A DNA stretch of 64,000 nt from a virus (Duplodnaviria > Caudoviricetes). Position numbers and translations under genes: made by a program. Each line of letters begins with the position of its first letter. Within the stretch, counting starts at the first letter, position 1. Positions 12,627 to 55,791 of the stretch are shown here, in pieces. Where the stretch lies: IMG/VR virus record IMGVR_UViG_3300037466_003648, positions 32,001-96,000 of that record; one strand, 5' to 3'. Under the pieces are notes generated by a model, which was not told the DNA's origin, did no database searches, and saw only the letters and a list, made by a program, of their open reading frames with translations.

Positions 12627-13748
12627 ATGAGCACCGTCCGCACCACCATCGAGCGTCTGGTCAACGTCCGGCCGCACACCAACTCTGACAACCTGAACCT
12701 CGCCATCGTGCGTGGCTGGCAAATGGTCATGAACGACCGCAACGCGGAGAACCCGCGTAAGACCGGCGACCTGGTCGTTTACTTCGAGGCGGGCACCGTG
12801 CTTCCGTTGAAGTGGGCCGAGAAGTTCGAGGTCGTCAACTACCTCTCCAACAAGACGGACATCGAGGGCAACAAGGTCTTGGTGGTCGGCAAGGTCCGCT
12901 TGCGGGGCGAGCCCAGCTTCGGTCTCACGGTTCCCGTCGCCGAGGCGCTGGCCCTGATGGACGAGCCGGACACCGCGGTTCTGTTCGAGGGCGACGACGT
13001 GTCGCACCTCTTCGGCACCAGCAAGTACCGGCCGCCGGTCAAGGCGAGCGCGGGTGACGCCGAGGAGGATCACCCGCACTTCCAGCCCTACACCGACATC
13101 GAGAACCTGCGCAACTTCCCCAACATCATCGAGGAAGGCGAAGAGGTCACCTACCGCGAGAAGCTGCACGGCACGAACTGTCGCGTGGGCTTCGTGCGCT
13201 GTGACGAAGATCCCAACTGCATCGTCCGCATGGCGGGCTCGCGCGAACTGCGGCGCAAGGCGCCCAAGACCGACGACGAGATGGCCGCCAACACCTACTG
13301 GTTCCCGTGGACGCTGGAGTCGGTCAGCTTGATGCTCAGCCACCTGGGTATTCAAGGTAACCAGAGCGCGACGCTGTACGGTGAGGTCTACGGTGGTGGC
13401 GTCCAGAAGGGCTTCGACTACGGCCACAAGCGTCCGCAGTTCCGCGCCTTTGACCTGTCGGTCAACGGCAAGTACCTGGACGATCCCGAGTTCGAGGCGC
13501 TGTGCCAGGAGTTCGGTATCGAGGTGGCGCCGCTCGCGTACCGCGGTCCCCACAACATGGCCAAGCTCAAGGAGCTGGCTGAAGGCAAGACGGCCATCGA
13601 GGGTGCCACGCATATCAGCGAGGGCATCGTCGTAACCCCCACCAAGGAGCGTGTCCACCCGCAGGTGGGTCGCGTGATCCTCAAGTACGTGTCGGATGCC
13701 TACCTCTTCCGCAAGGGCGGGGATGACGACGACACGACCGACGTGTAA
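12627..13748 (+). CDS. ATP-dependent RNA ligase (DRB0094/Rnl5-type, N-terminal OB domain)
   Basis: HTNSDNL N-terminus; motif I EKLHGTN; YGEVYG, FRAFDL, EGIVV, LKYVS. Confidence 0.9.
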   Translation: MSTVRTTIERLVNVRPHTNSDNLNLAIVRGWQMVMNDRNAENPRKTGDLVVYFEAGTVLPLKWAEKFEVVNYLSNKTDIEGNKVLVVGKVRLRGEPSFGLTVPVAEALALMDEPDTAVLFEGDDVSHLFGTSKYRPPVKASAGDAEEDHPHFQPYTDIENLRNFPNIIEEGEEVTYREKLHGTNCRVGFVRCDEDPNCIVRMAGSRELRRKAPKTDDEMAANTYWFPWTLESVSLMLSHLGIQGNQSATLYGEVYGGGVQKGFDYGHKRPQFRAFDLSVNGKYLDDPEFEALCQEFGIEVAPLAYRGPHNMAKLKELAEGKTAIEGATHISEGIVVTPTKERVHPQVGRVILKYVSDAYLFRKGGDDDDTTDV

Positions 13749-51957: not shown

Positions 51958-52030
51958 GGCGGAGTGGGCCAGCGGCTACGCCGGGAGTCTCATAAGCTCC
52001 AGATCGAGGGTTCGAGTCCCTCCTCCGCCC
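51958..52030 (+). tRNA. tRNA-Met or Ile2 (CAT)
   Basis: cloverleaf; GGAGT-CTCATAA-GCTCC; TTCGAGT T-loop. Confidence 0.85.
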
Positions 52031-52061
52031 CCTAATCGTACCTTGACAACCTAACACACTA

Positions 52062-52153
52062 GGGCAGATGGTCGAGAGGCCGATGGCACCTGTTTCGAAA
52101 ACAGGAGGCCGGTGTAACAAGCCGGTCCGGGGGTTCGAATCCCTCTCTGCCCG
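52062..52153 (+). tRNA. tRNA-Ser (CGA)
   Basis: CCTGT-TTCGAAA-ACAGG; long V-arm; G73. Confidence 0.9.
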
Positions 52154-52161
52154 CTTAACTT

Positions 52162-52247
52162 GGGTGGTTGGCAGAGAGGCCGATCGCGCGACTTTGCTAA
52201 AGTCGTGACCTCTATGGGGTCCGTGGGTTCGACTCCCACACCACCCG
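52162..52247 (+). tRNA. tRNA-Ser (GCT)
   Basis: CGACT-TTGCTAA-AGTCG; long V-arm. Confidence 0.9.
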
Positions 52248-52250
52248 CCT

Positions 52251-52326
52251 TGGTCTGTAGCTCAACTAGCAGAGTGCTGGATTCTGACTCCAGAGGTTGC
52301 GGGTGCGAGTCCCGTCAGACCTGCCA
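52251..52326 (+). tRNA. tRNA-Gln (CTG)
   Basis: CTGGA-TTCTGAC-TCCAG; encoded CCA. Confidence 0.85.
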
Positions 52327-52331
52327 TCAAT

Positions 52332-52404
52332 GGTCCTATCGTTCAGAGGCCAAGGACGCCGCATTGTCAATGCGGTAACACGGGTTCGAATCCCGTTAGG
52401 ACCG
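52332..52404 (+). tRNA. tRNA-Asp (GTC)
   Basis: CCGCA-TTGTCAA-TGCGG. Confidence 0.9.
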
Positions 52405-52408
52405 CCTC

Positions 52409-52467
52409 GGGCATCGCCTACCCAGACCGTGGTGACGCGGCGTAAGTAGGAGCAACGGTGTCCACCA
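52409..52467 (+). ncRNA. armless tRNA-like minihelix with G3:U70 and ACCA end
   Basis: GGGCATC/GGTGTCC 7-bp stem plus A73 and CCA; no D or T arm. Confidence 0.6.
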
Positions 52468-52471
52468 ATAT

Positions 52472-52544
52472 GCGCGTGGAGCTGGGTTGGTTCAGCGCCG
52501 CCTTGCCAAGGCGGAGTCCACGGGTTCGATCCCCGTTACGCGCT
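52472..52544 (+). tRNA. tRNA-Gly (GCC)
   Basis: CCGCC-TTGCCAA-GGCGG; U73. Confidence 0.9.
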
Positions 52545-52549
52545 CTCAT

Positions 52550-52621
52550 TGCTACGTAGCACAGCGGTAGTGCGGCGCACTGTTAATGCGAAGGTCGCTG
52601 GTTCGATCCCAGCCGTAGCAG
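52550..52621 (+). tRNA. tRNA-Asn (GTT)
   Basis: CGCA-CTGTTAA-TGCG; G73. Confidence 0.9.
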
Positions 52622-52626
52622 CCTAT

Positions 52627-52698
52627 GCCCCAGTAGCTCAATGGCAGAGCGTCTGCCTTTGGAGCAGATGGTTGTCCGTTCAAGTCGGACCTGGGGTT
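52627..52698 (+). tRNA. tRNA-Gln (TTG)
   Basis: TCTGC-CTTTGGA-GCAGA. Confidence 0.85.
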
Positions 52699-52709
52699 CT
52701 CAAGTTCCT

Positions 52710-52782
52710 GGTGATGTAGCTCAACAGGTAGAGCAAGCTCTTGATAAGGGCTAGGTCGGAGGTTCGAGTCCTCCCGTCACCA
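52710..52782 (+). tRNA. tRNA-Ile (GAT)
   Basis: AGCTC-TTGATAA-GGGCT; A73. Confidence 0.9.
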
Positions 52783-52792
52783 CCTCAAGACG

Positions 52793-52925
52793 GTCGCGGG
52801 TAGCCAAATGGGTTTAAAAGTACCCGGCGGACGAGCGGCTGGTGTTCCTACGGGACCCGGTCATCCGCCTCGACGGTCTGATCTAGCGGAAGGACGCTCC
52901 GCAAGTGGGTGAGAATCCCACACCC
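52793..52925 (+). ncRNA. unassigned structured RNA (junction plus T-arm-like hairpin)
   Basis: GTCG/CGAC, GGGTA/TACCC and GGCGGA/TCCGCC helices; GTGGG-TGAGAAT-CCCAC. Confidence 0.45.
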
Positions 52926-52928
52926 TTT

Positions 52929-52999
52929 GGGTCTATAGCTCAATGGCAGAGCTGCCGACTCTTAATCGGTAGATCAGAGTTCGACTCTCTGTGGACCCA
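52929..52999 (+). tRNA. tRNA-Lys (CTT)
   Basis: GCCGA-CTCTTAA-TCGGT. Confidence 0.9.
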
Positions 53000-53003
53000 C
53001 TCC

Positions 53004-53075
53004 GCCGGTGTGGCTCAATGGTACAGCAGTTGATTTGTAATCAACCACCTCTCGGTTCAAGTCCGGGTACCGGCA
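53004..53075 (+). tRNA. tRNA-Thr (TGT)
   Basis: GTTGA-TTTGTAA-TCAAC. Confidence 0.9.
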
Positions 53076-53088
53076 TCGCACAGTTCTC

Positions 53089-53161
53089 GCTGGTGTAGCT
53101 CAGTTGGTAGAGCGGCTGCTTCGTAAGCAGCGGGTCACGAGTTCGATTCTTGTCACCAGCA
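53089..53161 (+). tRNA. tRNA-Thr (CGT)
   Basis: GCTGC-TTCGTAA-GCAGC. Confidence 0.9.
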
Positions 53162-53166
53162 CCTAC

Positions 53167-53238
53167 GGTCGTCTGGCGCAACGGTGGCGCGGCTCCTTTA
53201 CACGGAGAGGGTTCAGGGTTCGAGTCCCTGGATGACCA
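53167..53238 (+). tRNA. tRNA-Val (TAC)
   Basis: CTCC-TTTACAC-GGAG. Confidence 0.88.
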
Positions 53239-53242
53239 CTAA

Positions 53243-53314
53243 CGGAATGTACGCAAGGGGTATGCGGTCTGCTTTGGGAGCAGGAAGTCGGGGGTTCAAA
53301 TCCCTCCATTCCGA
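53243..53314 (+). tRNA. tRNA-Pro (TGG)
   Basis: TCTGC-TTTGGGA-GCAGG; CGG start, A73. Confidence 0.9.
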
Positions 53315-53319
53315 CCTTT

Positions 53320-53401
53320 GGGGGTATAAGGGCTGTCGATTCGGTGAAAGCCCCATGCGGGAACGCCGAAGACCTGGGTTCAATTCCCAGTACCTCCACC
53401 A
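53320..53401 (+). ncRNA. ssrA-like: tmRNA tRNA-like domain only (no mRNA-like domain), 82 nt
   Basis: GGGGGTA/TACCTCC with G3:U70, A73-CCA; stemless D-loop ending TCGA; helix TTCGGT/GCCGAA; GAC linker; CTGGG-TTCAATT-CCCAG T-arm. Confidence 0.8.
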
Positions 53402-53545
53402 ACGACAGGGGCAACAAGGTGACCTGACCTTCCCCTACGCACCGCTCAAGGCCGTGTGGTTACAGGTGACGCTCGGGAGAGGACACCCGCTGATGGCTTG
53501 CCTCGCGGACACCGGGTGACAGTCGGGAATAGACCGGCACCTTTC
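53402..53545 (+). ncRNA. unassigned structured RNA downstream of mini-tmRNA
   Basis: AGGGG/CCCCT and AAGGT/ACCTT hairpin; 3' GGTG-GTC-GGGAATA-GAC-CACC hairpin. Confidence 0.35.
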
Positions 53546-53547
53546 AC

Positions 53548-53619
53548 GCCCGTTCAGCTCGTCGGTCGAGCATCTCCTTGACATGGAGAAGGCGGCTGGT
53601 TCAACTCCAGCAACGGGCT
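53548..53619 (+). tRNA. tRNA-Val (GAC)
   Basis: TCTCC-TTGACAT-GGAGA. Confidence 0.88.
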
Positions 53620-53625
53620 CTACAC

Positions 53626-53701
53626 GCCGTGACAGTCTGACTGGACAGATCTCTGGCCTTCATCCAGAGGGAAGCGGGTTCGAGTCCCGCACGCGGCACC
53701 A
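53626..53701 (+). tRNA. tRNA-Glu (TTC), C33 variant
   Basis: TCTGG-CCTTCAT-CCAGA; encoded CCA. Confidence 0.75.
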
Positions 53702-53713
53702 TCAACAAATCAT

Positions 53714-53788
53714 GCCCCGGCAGACTGCTCGGCAGGGTCGCCAGGTTCTCAACCTGGAGGTAGGTGGGTTCGAATCCCCCGCGGGGTG
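53714..53788 (+). tRNA. tRNA-Glu (CTC)
   Basis: CCAGG-TTCTCAA-CCTGG. Confidence 0.8.
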
Positions 53789-53793
53789 CCTTA

Positions 53794-53924
53794 GTCCTAC
53801 GTTAGCTTCAAGCCGTATCGAGAGGTGCGGACACCGCCTGGGTGACCAGGATAGTCGGTGGGTTAGAGCGACCCAGGATTCTGTGCCTGGGGAGGTTGTC
53901 GGTTCGAGTCCGGGGCGTAGGATA
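53794..53924 (+). ncRNA. tRNA-like RNA with 57-nt branched D-loop and 8-nt anticodon loop
   Basis: GTCCTACG/CGTAGGAT acceptor; GCTT/GAGC D-stem; CCCAGG-ATTCTGTG-CCTGGG; TTCGAGT T-loop. Confidence 0.7.
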
Positions 53925-53929
53925 CTAAC

Positions 53930-53996
53930 GGGAGATGGCAGATCCTTCCGATAGGCTGCAGGGCGGGCAACCGCCGTAAGTGCAAAACTGCCACCC
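53930..53996 (+). ncRNA. unassigned small structured RNA
   Basis: TGGCAG/CTGCCA, TGCA/TGCA, GGCGG-GCAA-CCGCC. Confidence 0.4.
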
Positions 53997-54002
53997 TTCA
54001 AT

Positions 54003-54075
54003 GCGGTAGTAGCTCAGTTGGCAGAGCGCGTGCCTTCCAAGCATGATGTCGCAGGTTCGAAGCCTGTCTACCGCA
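54003..54075 (+). tRNA. tRNA-Gly (TCC)
   Basis: CGTGC-CTTCCAA-GCATG. Confidence 0.9.
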
Positions 54076-54104
54076 CCTGGTCGTAGCAAGAGAAGGAGAT
54101 CGCC

Positions 54105-54266
54105 ATGGCACATTACAAGCGGAAGAAGCAGAAGGAACGGGTTCGTCGGACCAGCGGCTACGACACGGAGAAGGTCCGAGCCTCTTACCACGGATGGCAC
54201 GCCTTGCTGCCTGCCATCCGTCTGCAGATGATCAAGGTCAAGGAAGAGCTGCGCGACGCAGCGTAA
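54105..54266 (+). CDS. small basic protein (53 aa) inside tRNA array
   Basis: GAAGGAG RBS; MAHYKRKKQKERVRR... Confidence 0.65.
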   Translation: MAHYKRKKQKERVRRTSGYDTEKVRASYHGWHALLPAIRLQMIKVKEELRDAA

Positions 54267-54271
54267 GTTAT

Positions 54272-54411
54272 GGCCGGGTAGCTCAAGAGTAGAGCGCGAG
54301 CCTGATAAGCTCGTCTTCGTTGCGTAGTGGACACTGATCAACCACGGTAGCAACGAAGCGGTTGGAGGTCGCTCCTTCAACTGATGCCGGTGACGACTCC
54401 GGCCCTGGCCG
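54272..54411 (+). tRNA. tRNA-Ile(GAT)-like with 72-nt two-hairpin variable region
   Basis: CGAGC-CTGATAA-GCTCG; insert 54314-54385; 8-nt T-loop; G73. Confidence 0.7.
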
Positions 54412-54426
54412 CCCTTCACAACATCT

Positions 54427-54499
54427 GGGCCTGTAGCTCCAATGGTAGAGCAGCTCCTTTGCAAGGAAAGGGTTGGCGGTTCGAGTCCGCCCAGGTCCA
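54427..54499 (+). tRNA. tRNA-Ala (TGC)
   Basis: TTTGCAA loop; G3:U70; A73. Confidence 0.9.
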
Positions 54500-54501
54500 C
54501 T

Positions 54502-54607
54502 GGTTCTCACGACGTCCCGTGAACCTTGTTCGAACTGTTGCAACAGTTCGAACAAGGGTAGATGACAGGGATCAAAGCGCTGAAAGGTAAGCCGCGTCGT
54601 GAGAACC
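54502..54607 (+). repeat. element bounded by 13-bp inverted repeats, containing a perfect 34-bp palindrome (54524-54557)
   Basis: GGTTCTCACGACG/CGTCGTGAGAACC; CCTTGTTCGAACTGTTGCAACAGTTCGAACAAGG. Confidence 0.85.
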
Positions 54608-54613
54608 GCCCTT

Positions 54614-54686
54614 GGTCGGGTAGCTCCAACGGTAGAGCAGGCGCCTGAAAAGTGCCGTGTTGTCGGTTCGAGTCCGACCCCGACCA
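54614..54686 (+). tRNA. tRNA-Phe (GAA)
   Basis: GGCGC-CTGAAAA-GTGCC. Confidence 0.9.
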
Positions 54687-54703
54687 CTCTTTTGATCCAG
54701 GGG

Positions 54704-54733
54704 TTGACAGATCCCATCTATGTGTGTTAGGGT
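54704..54733 (+). promoter_or_regulatory. internal sigma70-type promoter in tRNA array
   Basis: TTGACA-18-TAGGGT with TG. Confidence 0.65.
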
Positions 54734-54742
54734 TGTCCAACT

Positions 54743-54850
54743 ATGAACGCCGTGATCGCCAACTTGCTGTTGCTAGCCCTGCCGGTTGCAGGGTATCGAC
54801 GCTGGCGACATTCTTCTTGCGGCGGTCGACTTACCCTGCATCTGGCGTAA
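54743..54850 (+). CDS. possible leaderless 35-aa hydrophobic peptide (or structured RNA)
   Basis: MNAVIANLLLLALPVAGYRRWRH...; ATG at predicted TSS; also a strong hairpin. Confidence 0.35.
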   Translation: MNAVIANLLLLALPVAGYRRWRHSSCGGRLTLHLA

Positions 54851-54867
54851 CCTCTTCACTCCTTTCT

Positions 54868-54950
54868 CGGGACGTGGCGAAATGGCAGATGCGCCTGGCT
54901 CAGAACCAGGTGGGCGAAAGCCCGTGGGAGTTCGACTCTCCCCGTCCCGA
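54868..54950 (+). tRNA. tRNA-Leu (CAG)
   Basis: CCTGG-CTCAGAA-CCAGG; V-arm. Confidence 0.9.
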
Positions 54951-54954
54951 CTCT

Positions 54955-55037
54955 GCGGATGTGGCGTAATGGCAGATGCGCACGCCTGAGTAGCGTGTGA
55001 GCGTAAGCTCGTGTGAGTTCGAGTCTCACCGTCCGCA
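54955..55037 (+). tRNA. tRNA-Leu (GAG)
   Basis: CACGC-CTGAGTA-GCGTG; V-arm. Confidence 0.9.
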
Positions 55038-55043
55038 CTACAA

Positions 55044-55126
55044 GTCGGGATGATGAAATGGCAGCCTTGGTGGTCTCAAAAACCGCTGTCCGTAAGGACG
55101 TGGGGGTTCGACTCCCCCTCCCGGCA
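55044..55126 (+). tRNA. tRNA-Leu (CAA)
   Basis: GTGGT-CTCAAAA-ACCGC; V-arm. Confidence 0.9.
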
Positions 55127-55149
55127 CTCTTCCAGTACCTTGACAATCT

Positions 55150-55224
55150 GTGCCCGCAGCTCGATGGACGAGCACTCCCCTCCGAAGGGAGCGGTTGCGC
55201 GTTCGAGTCGCGCCGGGCACGCCA
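55150..55224 (+). tRNA. tRNA-Arg (CCG)
   Basis: CTCCC-CTCCGAA-GGGAG; encoded CCA. Confidence 0.9.
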
Positions 55225-55225
55225 T

Positions 55226-55298
55226 GTGCGTGTAGTTCAAACGGAAGAACGTCGGCCTCCTAAGCTGACGGTTGCTGGTTCGAGTCCAGCCGCGCACT
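55226..55298 (+). tRNA. tRNA-Arg (CCT)
   Basis: TCGGC-CTCCTAA-GCTGA. Confidence 0.9.
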
Positions 55299-55302
55299 CT
55301 AA

Positions 55303-55375
55303 GCCCGCATAGCTCAATTGGACAGAGCACTGGTCTACGAAGCCGGGGACGTAGGTTCGACTCCTACTGTGGGTG
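55303..55375 (+). tRNA. tRNA-Arg (ACG)
   Basis: CTGGT-CTACGAA-GCCGG. Confidence 0.9.
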
Positions 55376-55379
55376 CTGT

Positions 55380-55451
55380 GGTGACTGTAGGCTAACGGTA
55401 AGCCGCCTGATTGTGGATCAGGTGATGCGGGTTCGATCCCCGTCAGTCACA
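55380..55451 (+). tRNA. tRNA-His (GTG)
   Basis: CCTGA-TTGTGGA-TCAGG; G at -1. Confidence 0.88.
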
Positions 55452-55456
55452 CCTAT

Positions 55457-55537
55457 GCCAGTATGGGTGAGTAGCAATACCGGCTGCCTGTAAAGCAGCT
55501 CCCTCTGGGTTCCCTGGTGCAAGTCCAGGTGCTGGCA
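55457..55537 (+). tRNA. tRNA-Tyr (GTA)
   Basis: GCTGC-CTGTAAA-GCAGC; V-arm. Confidence 0.88.
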
Positions 55538-55543
55538 CTCCAT

Positions 55544-55614
55544 CTACCGGTAGCCAAGTAGTAAGGTAGCGGTCTGCAAAACCGCCAGCGTGGGTGCGAT
55601 TCCCACCCGGTAGT
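55544..55614 (+). tRNA. tRNA-Cys (GCA)
   Basis: GCGGT-CTGCAAA-ACCGC; U73. Confidence 0.9.
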
Positions 55615-55618
55615 CTCT

Positions 55619-55690
55619 GCGTCGTAAAGATTACGGTAGTCGGCTGGTCTCCAAAACCAGCAGCGGTGGGTTCGACTCCCCCACGATGCG
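55619..55690 (+). tRNA. tRNA-Trp (CCA)
   Basis: CTGGT-CTCCAAA-ACCAG; G73. Confidence 0.9.
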
Positions 55691-55697
55691 CTCTCTT

Positions 55698-55781
55698 GGT
55701 TGGTAGGGTTCAGTGGTGAGCACCACCGTCGGAAGCGGTGGCCGGGTGTCACAGCCTTCGGTTCGACTCCGATGCCAACCG
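55698..55781 (+). tRNA. tRNA-Ser (GGA), C33 variant
   Basis: CACCG-TCGGAAG-CGGTG; V-arm; G73. Confidence 0.8.
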
Positions 55782-55791
55782 CCTCATCCCC

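Follow-up and report, generated by a model that had tools for sequence, protein, structure and literature searches.

A tmRNA gene cut down to the tRNA-like domain, within a tRNA array of an uncultured soil phage, and its relatives in other phages

Results

An 82-nt tmRNA-like gene within a phage tRNA array

The stretch of DNA analysed here (the window, 64,000 nt in total) corresponds to bases 32001-96000 of a 205,180-bp IMG/VR virus record, the genome of an uncultured soil phage of "jumbo" size that has direct terminal repeats, is rated complete and has a GC content of ~62%. The window carries an array of 32 tRNA genes on one strand, 27 of which also reach gathering level in Rfam. Inside this array, starting 3 nt past a tRNA-Pro (53243-53316) and ending 146 nt short of a tRNA-Val (53548-53620), lies a gene that has the parts of the tRNA-like domain (TLD) of a tmRNA and that we refer to as a mini-tmRNA. 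The features of the locus, with the basis for each in brackets, are as follows.

51958-55783 (+): tRNA array, 32 tRNA genes, one strand (ARAGORN and Rfam)
53320-53401 (+): TLD-only mini-tmRNA, whole gene, 82 nt, single copy in the genome (RF00023 end to end; covariance model R1, 81.5 bits)
53320-53326 (+): acceptor stem 5' strand GGGGGTA, with G3 at 53322 (pairs 7/7 with 53391-53397)
53327-53339 (+): stemless D-loop TAAGGGCTGTCGA with GG and the tmRNA-typical TCGA (aligned to the RF00023 D-loop)
53340-53345 (+): helix 2a 5' strand TTCGGT (pairs with 53365-53370, one U-G pair)
53346-53364 (+): 19-nt insert GAAAGCCCCATGCGGGAAC, replacing the ~310-nt mRNA-like domain and pseudoknots (sequence and RF00023 alignment)
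53352-53354 / 53359-53361 (+): 3-bp hairpin inside the insert, CCC / GGG (folding)
53365-53370 (+): helix 2a 3' strand GCCGAA (pairs with 53340-53345)
53371-53373 (+): GAC linker from helix 2a to the T-arm (aligned to 'GGAC' of RF00023)
53374-53390 (+): T-arm CTGGG / TTCAATT / CCCAG (RF00023 alignment)
53391-53397 (+): acceptor stem 3' strand TACCTCC, with U70 at 53395 (pairs with 53320-53326, including G3:U70, 53322:53395)
53398-53401 (+): discriminator A73 and a genomically encoded CCA (read from the sequence)

The initial annotation had described this locus as a complete TLD without an mRNA-like domain, naming the acceptor stem with G3:U70, the TCGA of the D-loop, helix 2, the GAC linker and the T-arm as its hallmarks. 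This description is correct, as each hallmark lies where it had been placed and only 19 nt separate the two strands of helix 2a. Relative to the standard one-piece tmRNA (SsrA, RF00023), with which it has in common a homologous and complete TLD, the alanine identity and the helix 2a/GAC junction on which the SmpB-binding side of the TLD lies, the mini-tmRNA is without the mRNA-like domain (resume codon, tag frame and stop codon) and without the four pseudoknots PK1-PK4, so that 310 RF00023 positions are deleted. The insert found in their place is nearly identical to GAAAGCCGCACGCGGAAC, the consensus of the actinophage copies, with a hairpin pair swapped from G-C to C-G. Its 3' half is similar to the part of a Streptomyces tmRNA that forms the 3' strand of helix 2 (GCACACGGAG versus GCACGCGGAG), which fits a putative origin from a full-length tmRNA by loss of an internal segment. 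The CCA end is encoded in just 3 of the 32 neighbouring tRNAs and, unlike in the copy at 53320-53401, is not encoded in most members of the family described below. The array also contains an ordinary tRNA-Ala(TGC), called by ARAGORN at 54427-54500, and the 146-nt spacer downstream of the mini-tmRNA (53402-53547) folds no better than its shuffles.

Identification as a tmRNA

The initial annotation had proposed an alignment to RF00023, and the model matches the gene from end to end: its positions 1-374 align exactly to 53320-53401, and in place of 310 model positions the gene has 17-19 nt. The match scores 34.7 bits in a search of 451 nt (E 2e-12) and 43.2 bits over 5.2 kb (E 5.7e-15; E 5.3e-17 over the genome), and while these scores are below the Rfam gathering score for this family (47 bits), which is why the gene is missing from a default Rfam scan, the match is still far beyond chance. 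RF00023 is also the top family of the tRNA clan at 53320-53401 and outscores the tRNA model. ARAGORN calls neither a tRNA nor a tmRNA at this position, and it finds no gene in isolated sequences of the family. With R1, a covariance model that we built from 35 sequences of our first IMG/VR scan (see below), the mini-tmRNA scores 81.5 bits on the phage genome, against 29 bits for the runner-up, a tRNA.

The identity of a tRNA-Ala was rejected, as the D-stem and an anticodon arm with an Ala anticodon are lacking, ARAGORN makes no call and the tmRNA model scores higher. An attP site, or ssrA fragment of an integrating element, was likewise rejected, since both halves of the domain are present and the genome is without a PF00589 integrase. 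If the gene were one half of a two-piece (permuted) tmRNA, a separate coding piece pairing with the TLD would be expected, and the initial annotation had named such a piece as evidence against its reading. None was found in the array, the genome or the window: no mRNA-like piece gives a tmRNA-family match in the array or the genome, the array spacers contain no tag-like short frame, and the 19-nt insert has no complement in the window. The gene is moreover in one piece and self-closed, and the permuted model RF04321 reaches only 16-20 bits. A 53-aa frame at 54105-54266 was considered as a tag piece and dropped, as it has its own SD and ATG.

Collapse of a full-length tmRNA during assembly had been named as a further way in which the short form could arise. 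Contigs from three other metagenome runs span 52900-53900 with 0 differences and 0 gaps, and the contig of a fourth run spans 52900-53584, again with 0 differences and 0 gaps. As these independent assemblies (soil and rhizosphere contigs) all have the identical 82-nt form, it is not an assembly collapse. Together this confirms the observation that the mini-tmRNA gene is real. Among public runs, the array region is present in at least nine soil or rhizosphere metagenome runs, and no RNA runs carrying it are listed.

The gene is of a kind known from one mycobacteriophage

Cluster C mycobacteriophages such as Bxz1 carry full-length tmRNAs, and the initial annotation had held that known phage tmRNAs are full length. 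As a general statement this is wrong, because a TLD-only form in phage DS6A was published in 2009/2014. The list of ssrA phages in Hudson, Lau and Williams 2014 (PMC4131195) includes 'Mycobacterium phage DS6A (TLD only)', described there as little more than a TLD, and the same RNA is tmID 11587 of the tmRNA Website. Given this precedent the mini-tmRNA does not count as undescribed in kind. One phage represents this kind in the literature, and the copy at 53320-53401 belongs with it, having a complete TLD, a short helix 2 closed by a hairpin, a length within 60-90 nt and a phage genome as its setting. New here are the copy with an encoded CCA in the tRNA array of a jumbo phage and a family that is much larger than the literature states.

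The DS6A RNA and the mini-tmRNA at 53320-53401 have in common the Ala-type acceptor with G3:U70 and A73, the stemless D-loop with TCGA, the T-arm, a helix 2a of 5-6 bp, the inner hairpin GAAA(A/G)CC...GCGG, and the lack of a tag frame and of pseudoknots. They differ in setting and in detail, as DS6A is a 60-kb temperate siphovirus with a solitary copy and no encoded CCA, whereas the present copy lies, with its CCA encoded, in a 32-tRNA array of a 205-kb phage that has terminal repeats and no tyrosine integrase; the first pair of helix 2a is C-G in DS6A and U-A here. A 3' trailer common to the two, ACGACAGG, was rejected as a conserved element since other members have not retained it. In sequence, the nearest copies from cultured phages are those of the Streptomyces phages pSt2308, LuckySocke and GiJojo (82% identity over 55 nt, with an identical T-arm), which have the inner segment TGAAAGCCGCACGCGGAAC and differ from the present copy in that their CCA is not encoded; the pSt2308 copy likewise lies in a tRNA array.

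Outside phages, the CDS-less tmRNAs of organelles (jakobid and oomycete mitochondria, RF02544; Mallomonadaceae plastids, with two genes of ~65 bp, PMC11915505) resemble the mini-tmRNA in being a TLD without a tag frame whose SmpB is encoded elsewhere. In contrast to the one-piece phage gene, they are mostly permuted two-piece genes, and they are of independent origin. The pipeline of the 2025 tmRNA database paper (PMC11915505) took RefSeq viruses and rejected 'truncations', and our full-text literature searches found no description of a widespread phage TLD-only class.

TLD-only genes are common among phages

The initial annotation had suggested a search of phage genomes for TLD-only ssrA, and this search was productive, as such genes occur in DS6A, in Streptomyces phages and in a large number of IMG/VR contigs. 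Our first IMG/VR scan, with the pattern GGGG..CGA..(20-50 nt)..T-loop..CTCCACCA, yielded at least 120 loci, and among the matches listed most were TLD-only look-alikes of 64-89 nt and few were tRNA-Ala genes. R1 gives members 54-88 bits, the 3' ends of ordinary tmRNAs 43-49 bits and tRNAs no more than 43 bits. A second scan, of actinophage type, used the inner motif and the T-loop only and made no use of the acceptor stem; it gave 37 further loci, every one of which (37/37) was confirmed by R1. The IMG/VR contigs thus scanned hold at least about 100 distinct copies with the same architecture, and the GC content of the contigs ranges from 31 to 69%.

Cultured phages carry the element as well. 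R1 recovered the DS6A copy (JN698994 28478-28560; L130:28478-28560) with 58 bits, between gp33 and a DNA pol III gene, and in Streptomyces phage pSt2308 it found a copy that lies, unannotated, within a tRNA array (L129:1477-1557; 63 bits). The copies of GiJojo (PP725410 17047-17103) and LuckySocke (OR725497 17999-18055) are not annotated as RNA either, and the GiJojo site is overlain by an annotated 'hypothetical protein'. When the same kind of pattern was used on bacterial genomes, 95 of the 120 listed matches were the 3' ends of ordinary tmRNAs, and ~18 true minis were found in MAGs and genomes among the matches listed; all five of the genomes checked (5/5) have a normal tmRNA.

Among the matches listed, a tRNA lies within 300 nt of 15 of 77 members, and most members are solitary. 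The only neighbours that recur across the family within 3 kb are a DnaB-like helicase and endonuclease VII, both ordinary replication genes, and no translation factor recurs within this distance. The initial annotation had gone on to propose an RNA-based translation counter-defence module made up of the mini-tmRNA and the other odd RNAs of the array, which none of our results supports, with 15/77 members near a tRNA and no conserved translation-related neighbour.

Two arrangements within the family are recorded here as observations. In a set of small actinophage contigs (L132, L136, L137, L141, L149, L163 and related ones) the mini-tmRNA immediately follows a GC-rich hairpin and is itself immediately followed by an SD and ATG, and it heads a module with the DnaB-like helicase and endonuclease VII. 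In another contig (IMGVR_UViG_3300021373_002437, L088:680-754) a 75-nt TLD-like element precedes a full-length tmRNA with the tag ANDDVYHQDILLAA, whose 5' end lies ~125 nt further downstream, and ARAGORN takes the pair for one permuted tmRNA. The ARAGORN tmRNA calls over two other contigs, L085 and L015, were rejected as spurious extensions, while the L088 call reflects a real full-length tmRNA beside the TLD-like element.

Helices covary and the alanine identity set is kept

Across 78 members, 96.7% of pair cells are standard and 16 of the 21 pairs are altered on both sides. Covariation scores 0.636, compared with 0.05-0.10 for slid controls, and none of 500 shuffles (0/500) reaches the observed value. 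Compensatory changes are seen in all six family pairs of helix 2a (6/6; 97.8-98.3% of cells paired) and in 4 of the 5 pairs of the T-arm, where 100% of cells are paired. In alignment A1 the GA of the GAC linker is invariant, as is the TCGA, for which both search patterns had demanded CGA or TCGA.

The first four acceptor pairs are uninformative in the 78-member set because they were fixed by the search pattern. In the acceptor-blind subset (30 distinct sequences), G1-C72, G2-C71, G3:U70 and A73 are invariant in 30/30, whereas each of pairs 4-7 shows two-sided changes in 3-16 sequences. The invariant positions are the established AlaRS identity set of tRNA-Ala and tmRNA, and their strict retention next to the drifting pairs 4-7 argues that alanine charging of these RNAs is probably under selection. 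A one-codon message was also considered, as a stop triplet is found at the helix 2a junction in 14/25 and in 41/72 distinct members, and it was dropped because the triplet is enriched yet not conserved.

Discussion

Possible roles of the mini-tmRNA

Bacteria rescue ribosomes and tag proteins mainly through the tmRNA-SmpB pair, which several pathogens cannot do without. Our searches of the phage genome found no SmpB, no full-length tmRNA (RF00023 search), no AlaRS, no CCA-adding enzyme, no Pth, no RF-1/ArfB domain and no tyrosine integrase (PF00589). On balance we lean towards the reading that 53320-53401 is a functional tmRNA gene of the DS6A kind, reduced to the TLD, helix 2a and a capping hairpin, whose product suppresses host tagging by competition. 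In such a model the RNA would be transcribed with the phage tRNA array, freed by the tRNA-processing enzymes of the host, charged with alanine by host AlaRS via G3:U70 and A73, and bound by host SmpB. Without a message (it has neither a resume codon nor a tag frame nor a stop codon), it would be unable to add a degradation tag, and it would compete with host tmRNA for SmpB, and probably also for EF-Tu and stalled ribosomes, lowering SsrA tagging during infection.

Suppression of tagging is the best-supported effect because a similar molecule has been published as an inhibitor of tmRNA. In the passage of PMC4131195 that concerns DS6A, which cites Mao et al. 2009, such a molecule is said to inhibit tmRNA strongly whether it is chargeable or not, perhaps by titrating SmpB, and the corresponding passage of PMC11915505, citing the same work, has the DS6A TLD-only form inhibiting tmRNA in E. 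coli. SmpB sequestration, for which there is this published precedent, and rescue without a tag, both put forward in the initial annotation, are the leading hypotheses. What benefit the phage would draw from suppressed tagging is conjecture.

Because chargeable and unchargeable forms were both reported to inhibit, titration of SmpB alone leaves the strict retention of the alanine identity set unexplained, and a charging-dependent role is therefore a serious rival. If the alanine-charged mini-tmRNA were to enter the stalled ribosome with host SmpB and EF-Tu and take over the nascent chain, the peptidyl-RNA could be removed by drop-off with Pth or by ArfB-type release, leaving one extra alanine and no degron, and this productive, tag-less rescue would aid the phage when mRNAs or tRNAs are cut. 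We regard this as possible and hold it only tentatively. It would account for an identity set that is invariant in 30/30 while the rest of the stem covaries, given that SmpB titration needs no charging (according to the same passage of PMC4131195), and it agrees with the CCA encoded in the 53320-53401 copy, with the 32 tRNAs and the RNA ligase by which this phage invests heavily in translation and in the repair of RNA, and with the mitochondrial CDS-less tmRNAs, which occur alongside SmpB and whose presumed role is to help where mRNAs are incomplete (PMC11915505). However, no release step comes from the phage, whose genome is without Pth or an RF-1/ArfB domain, the one-codon message is not conserved (stop triplet in 14/25 and 41/72), and the sole experimental report for such an RNA, as these passages give it, is of inhibition and not of rescue. 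An extended form of the idea, in which charged RNAs acting on the ribosome constitute a widespread phage tag-less rescue that borrows host SmpB and that in this phage works with the RNA ligase and a rod-like RNA of the array (52409-52467) as a translation-protection module, strikes us as unlikely. If tag-less rescue were true, ribosomes stalled by defence nucleases or host shut-off would be freed and their products would not be marked for degradation.

Roles outside trans-translation fare worse. The gene could be a tRNA-like decoy, acting as a sink for anticodon or acceptor nucleases, as a regulator of AlaRS, or as a processing or primer element of the array, and the array does hold further non-canonical RNAs, including the 59-nt rod with G3:U and ACCA at 52409-52467; but as the family keeps parts that are specific to tmRNA (the stemless D-loop with TCGA, helix 2a and GAC) and not generic tRNA features, and as most members lie outside tRNA arrays, we find this improbable. 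Temperate elements often carry ssrA fragments, and this frequency, the sub-gathering RF00023 score and the likeness of the inner hairpin to the helix 2 3' strand of Streptomyces tmRNA (GCACACGGAG versus GCACGCGGAG) are what could be said for a locus with no RNA function, be it what is left of a full-length phage tmRNA in decay, a tRNA-Ala pseudogene of unusual form, or a piece of host ssrA of the attP type. We give hardly any credence to this, since at least about 100 distinct copies are spread over phages whose GC ranges from 31 to 69%, every helix shows compensatory changes, and an att fragment would consist of the 3' part alone whereas both the 5' and 3' halves are present here. Moreover, the phage genome has no tyrosine integrase and a normal tRNA-Ala(TGC) at 54427-54500, and the sequence is identical in independent assemblies.

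Competitive suppression of host tagging, the reading we lean towards, and tag-less rescue would both matter beyond this phage, as an RNA by which a phage disables or bypasses tmRNA-SmpB would be a natural inhibitor or variant of the pathway. The TLD-only form is common across very different phages, while the literature we found treats it as the curiosity of one mycobacteriophage. The family is invisible to ARAGORN and lies under the Rfam threshold, and yet it keeps the determinants of alanine charging. Phage annotation overlooks these genes or labels them as proteins, and a dedicated covariance model would recover them; the practical value of the finding lies mostly in this large family missed by standard annotation. 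As DS6A and the Streptomyces phages can be cultured, they permit a direct test of blocked trans-translation against a tag-less version of it.

Other features of the phage and its array

Comparison of the DNA and of two proteins with cultured phages found no close relative. The nearest mini-tmRNAs, together with a tRNA-Lys that matches a Gordonia phage, do no more than hint at an actinobacterial host.

Between the tRNA-Asp and tRNA-Gly of the array lies the 59-nt rod-like RNA mentioned above (52409-52467, +), which gives no match with R1 or Rfam. Its 8-bp terminal stem has a G3:U and is followed by ACCA, so that it resembles an alanine minihelix, and its MFE is -25.8 kcal/mol (z = -2.2). Also within the array, the segment 54105-54411 (+) holds an SD and a very basic 53-aa ORF with the C-terminus ...LRDAA, after which comes a tRNA-like element that is oversized (54272-54350 scores 24.5 bits with RF00005). 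A promoter-like motif, TTGACAGATCC, is repeated at ~51685 and ~54703 (+) and precedes each half of the tRNA array, which suggests phage-specific promoters driving it. Finally, the same phage encodes an RNA ligase at 12627-13748 (+), with PF09414 and a PHA02142 OB domain, for which a function in tRNA repair is possible.
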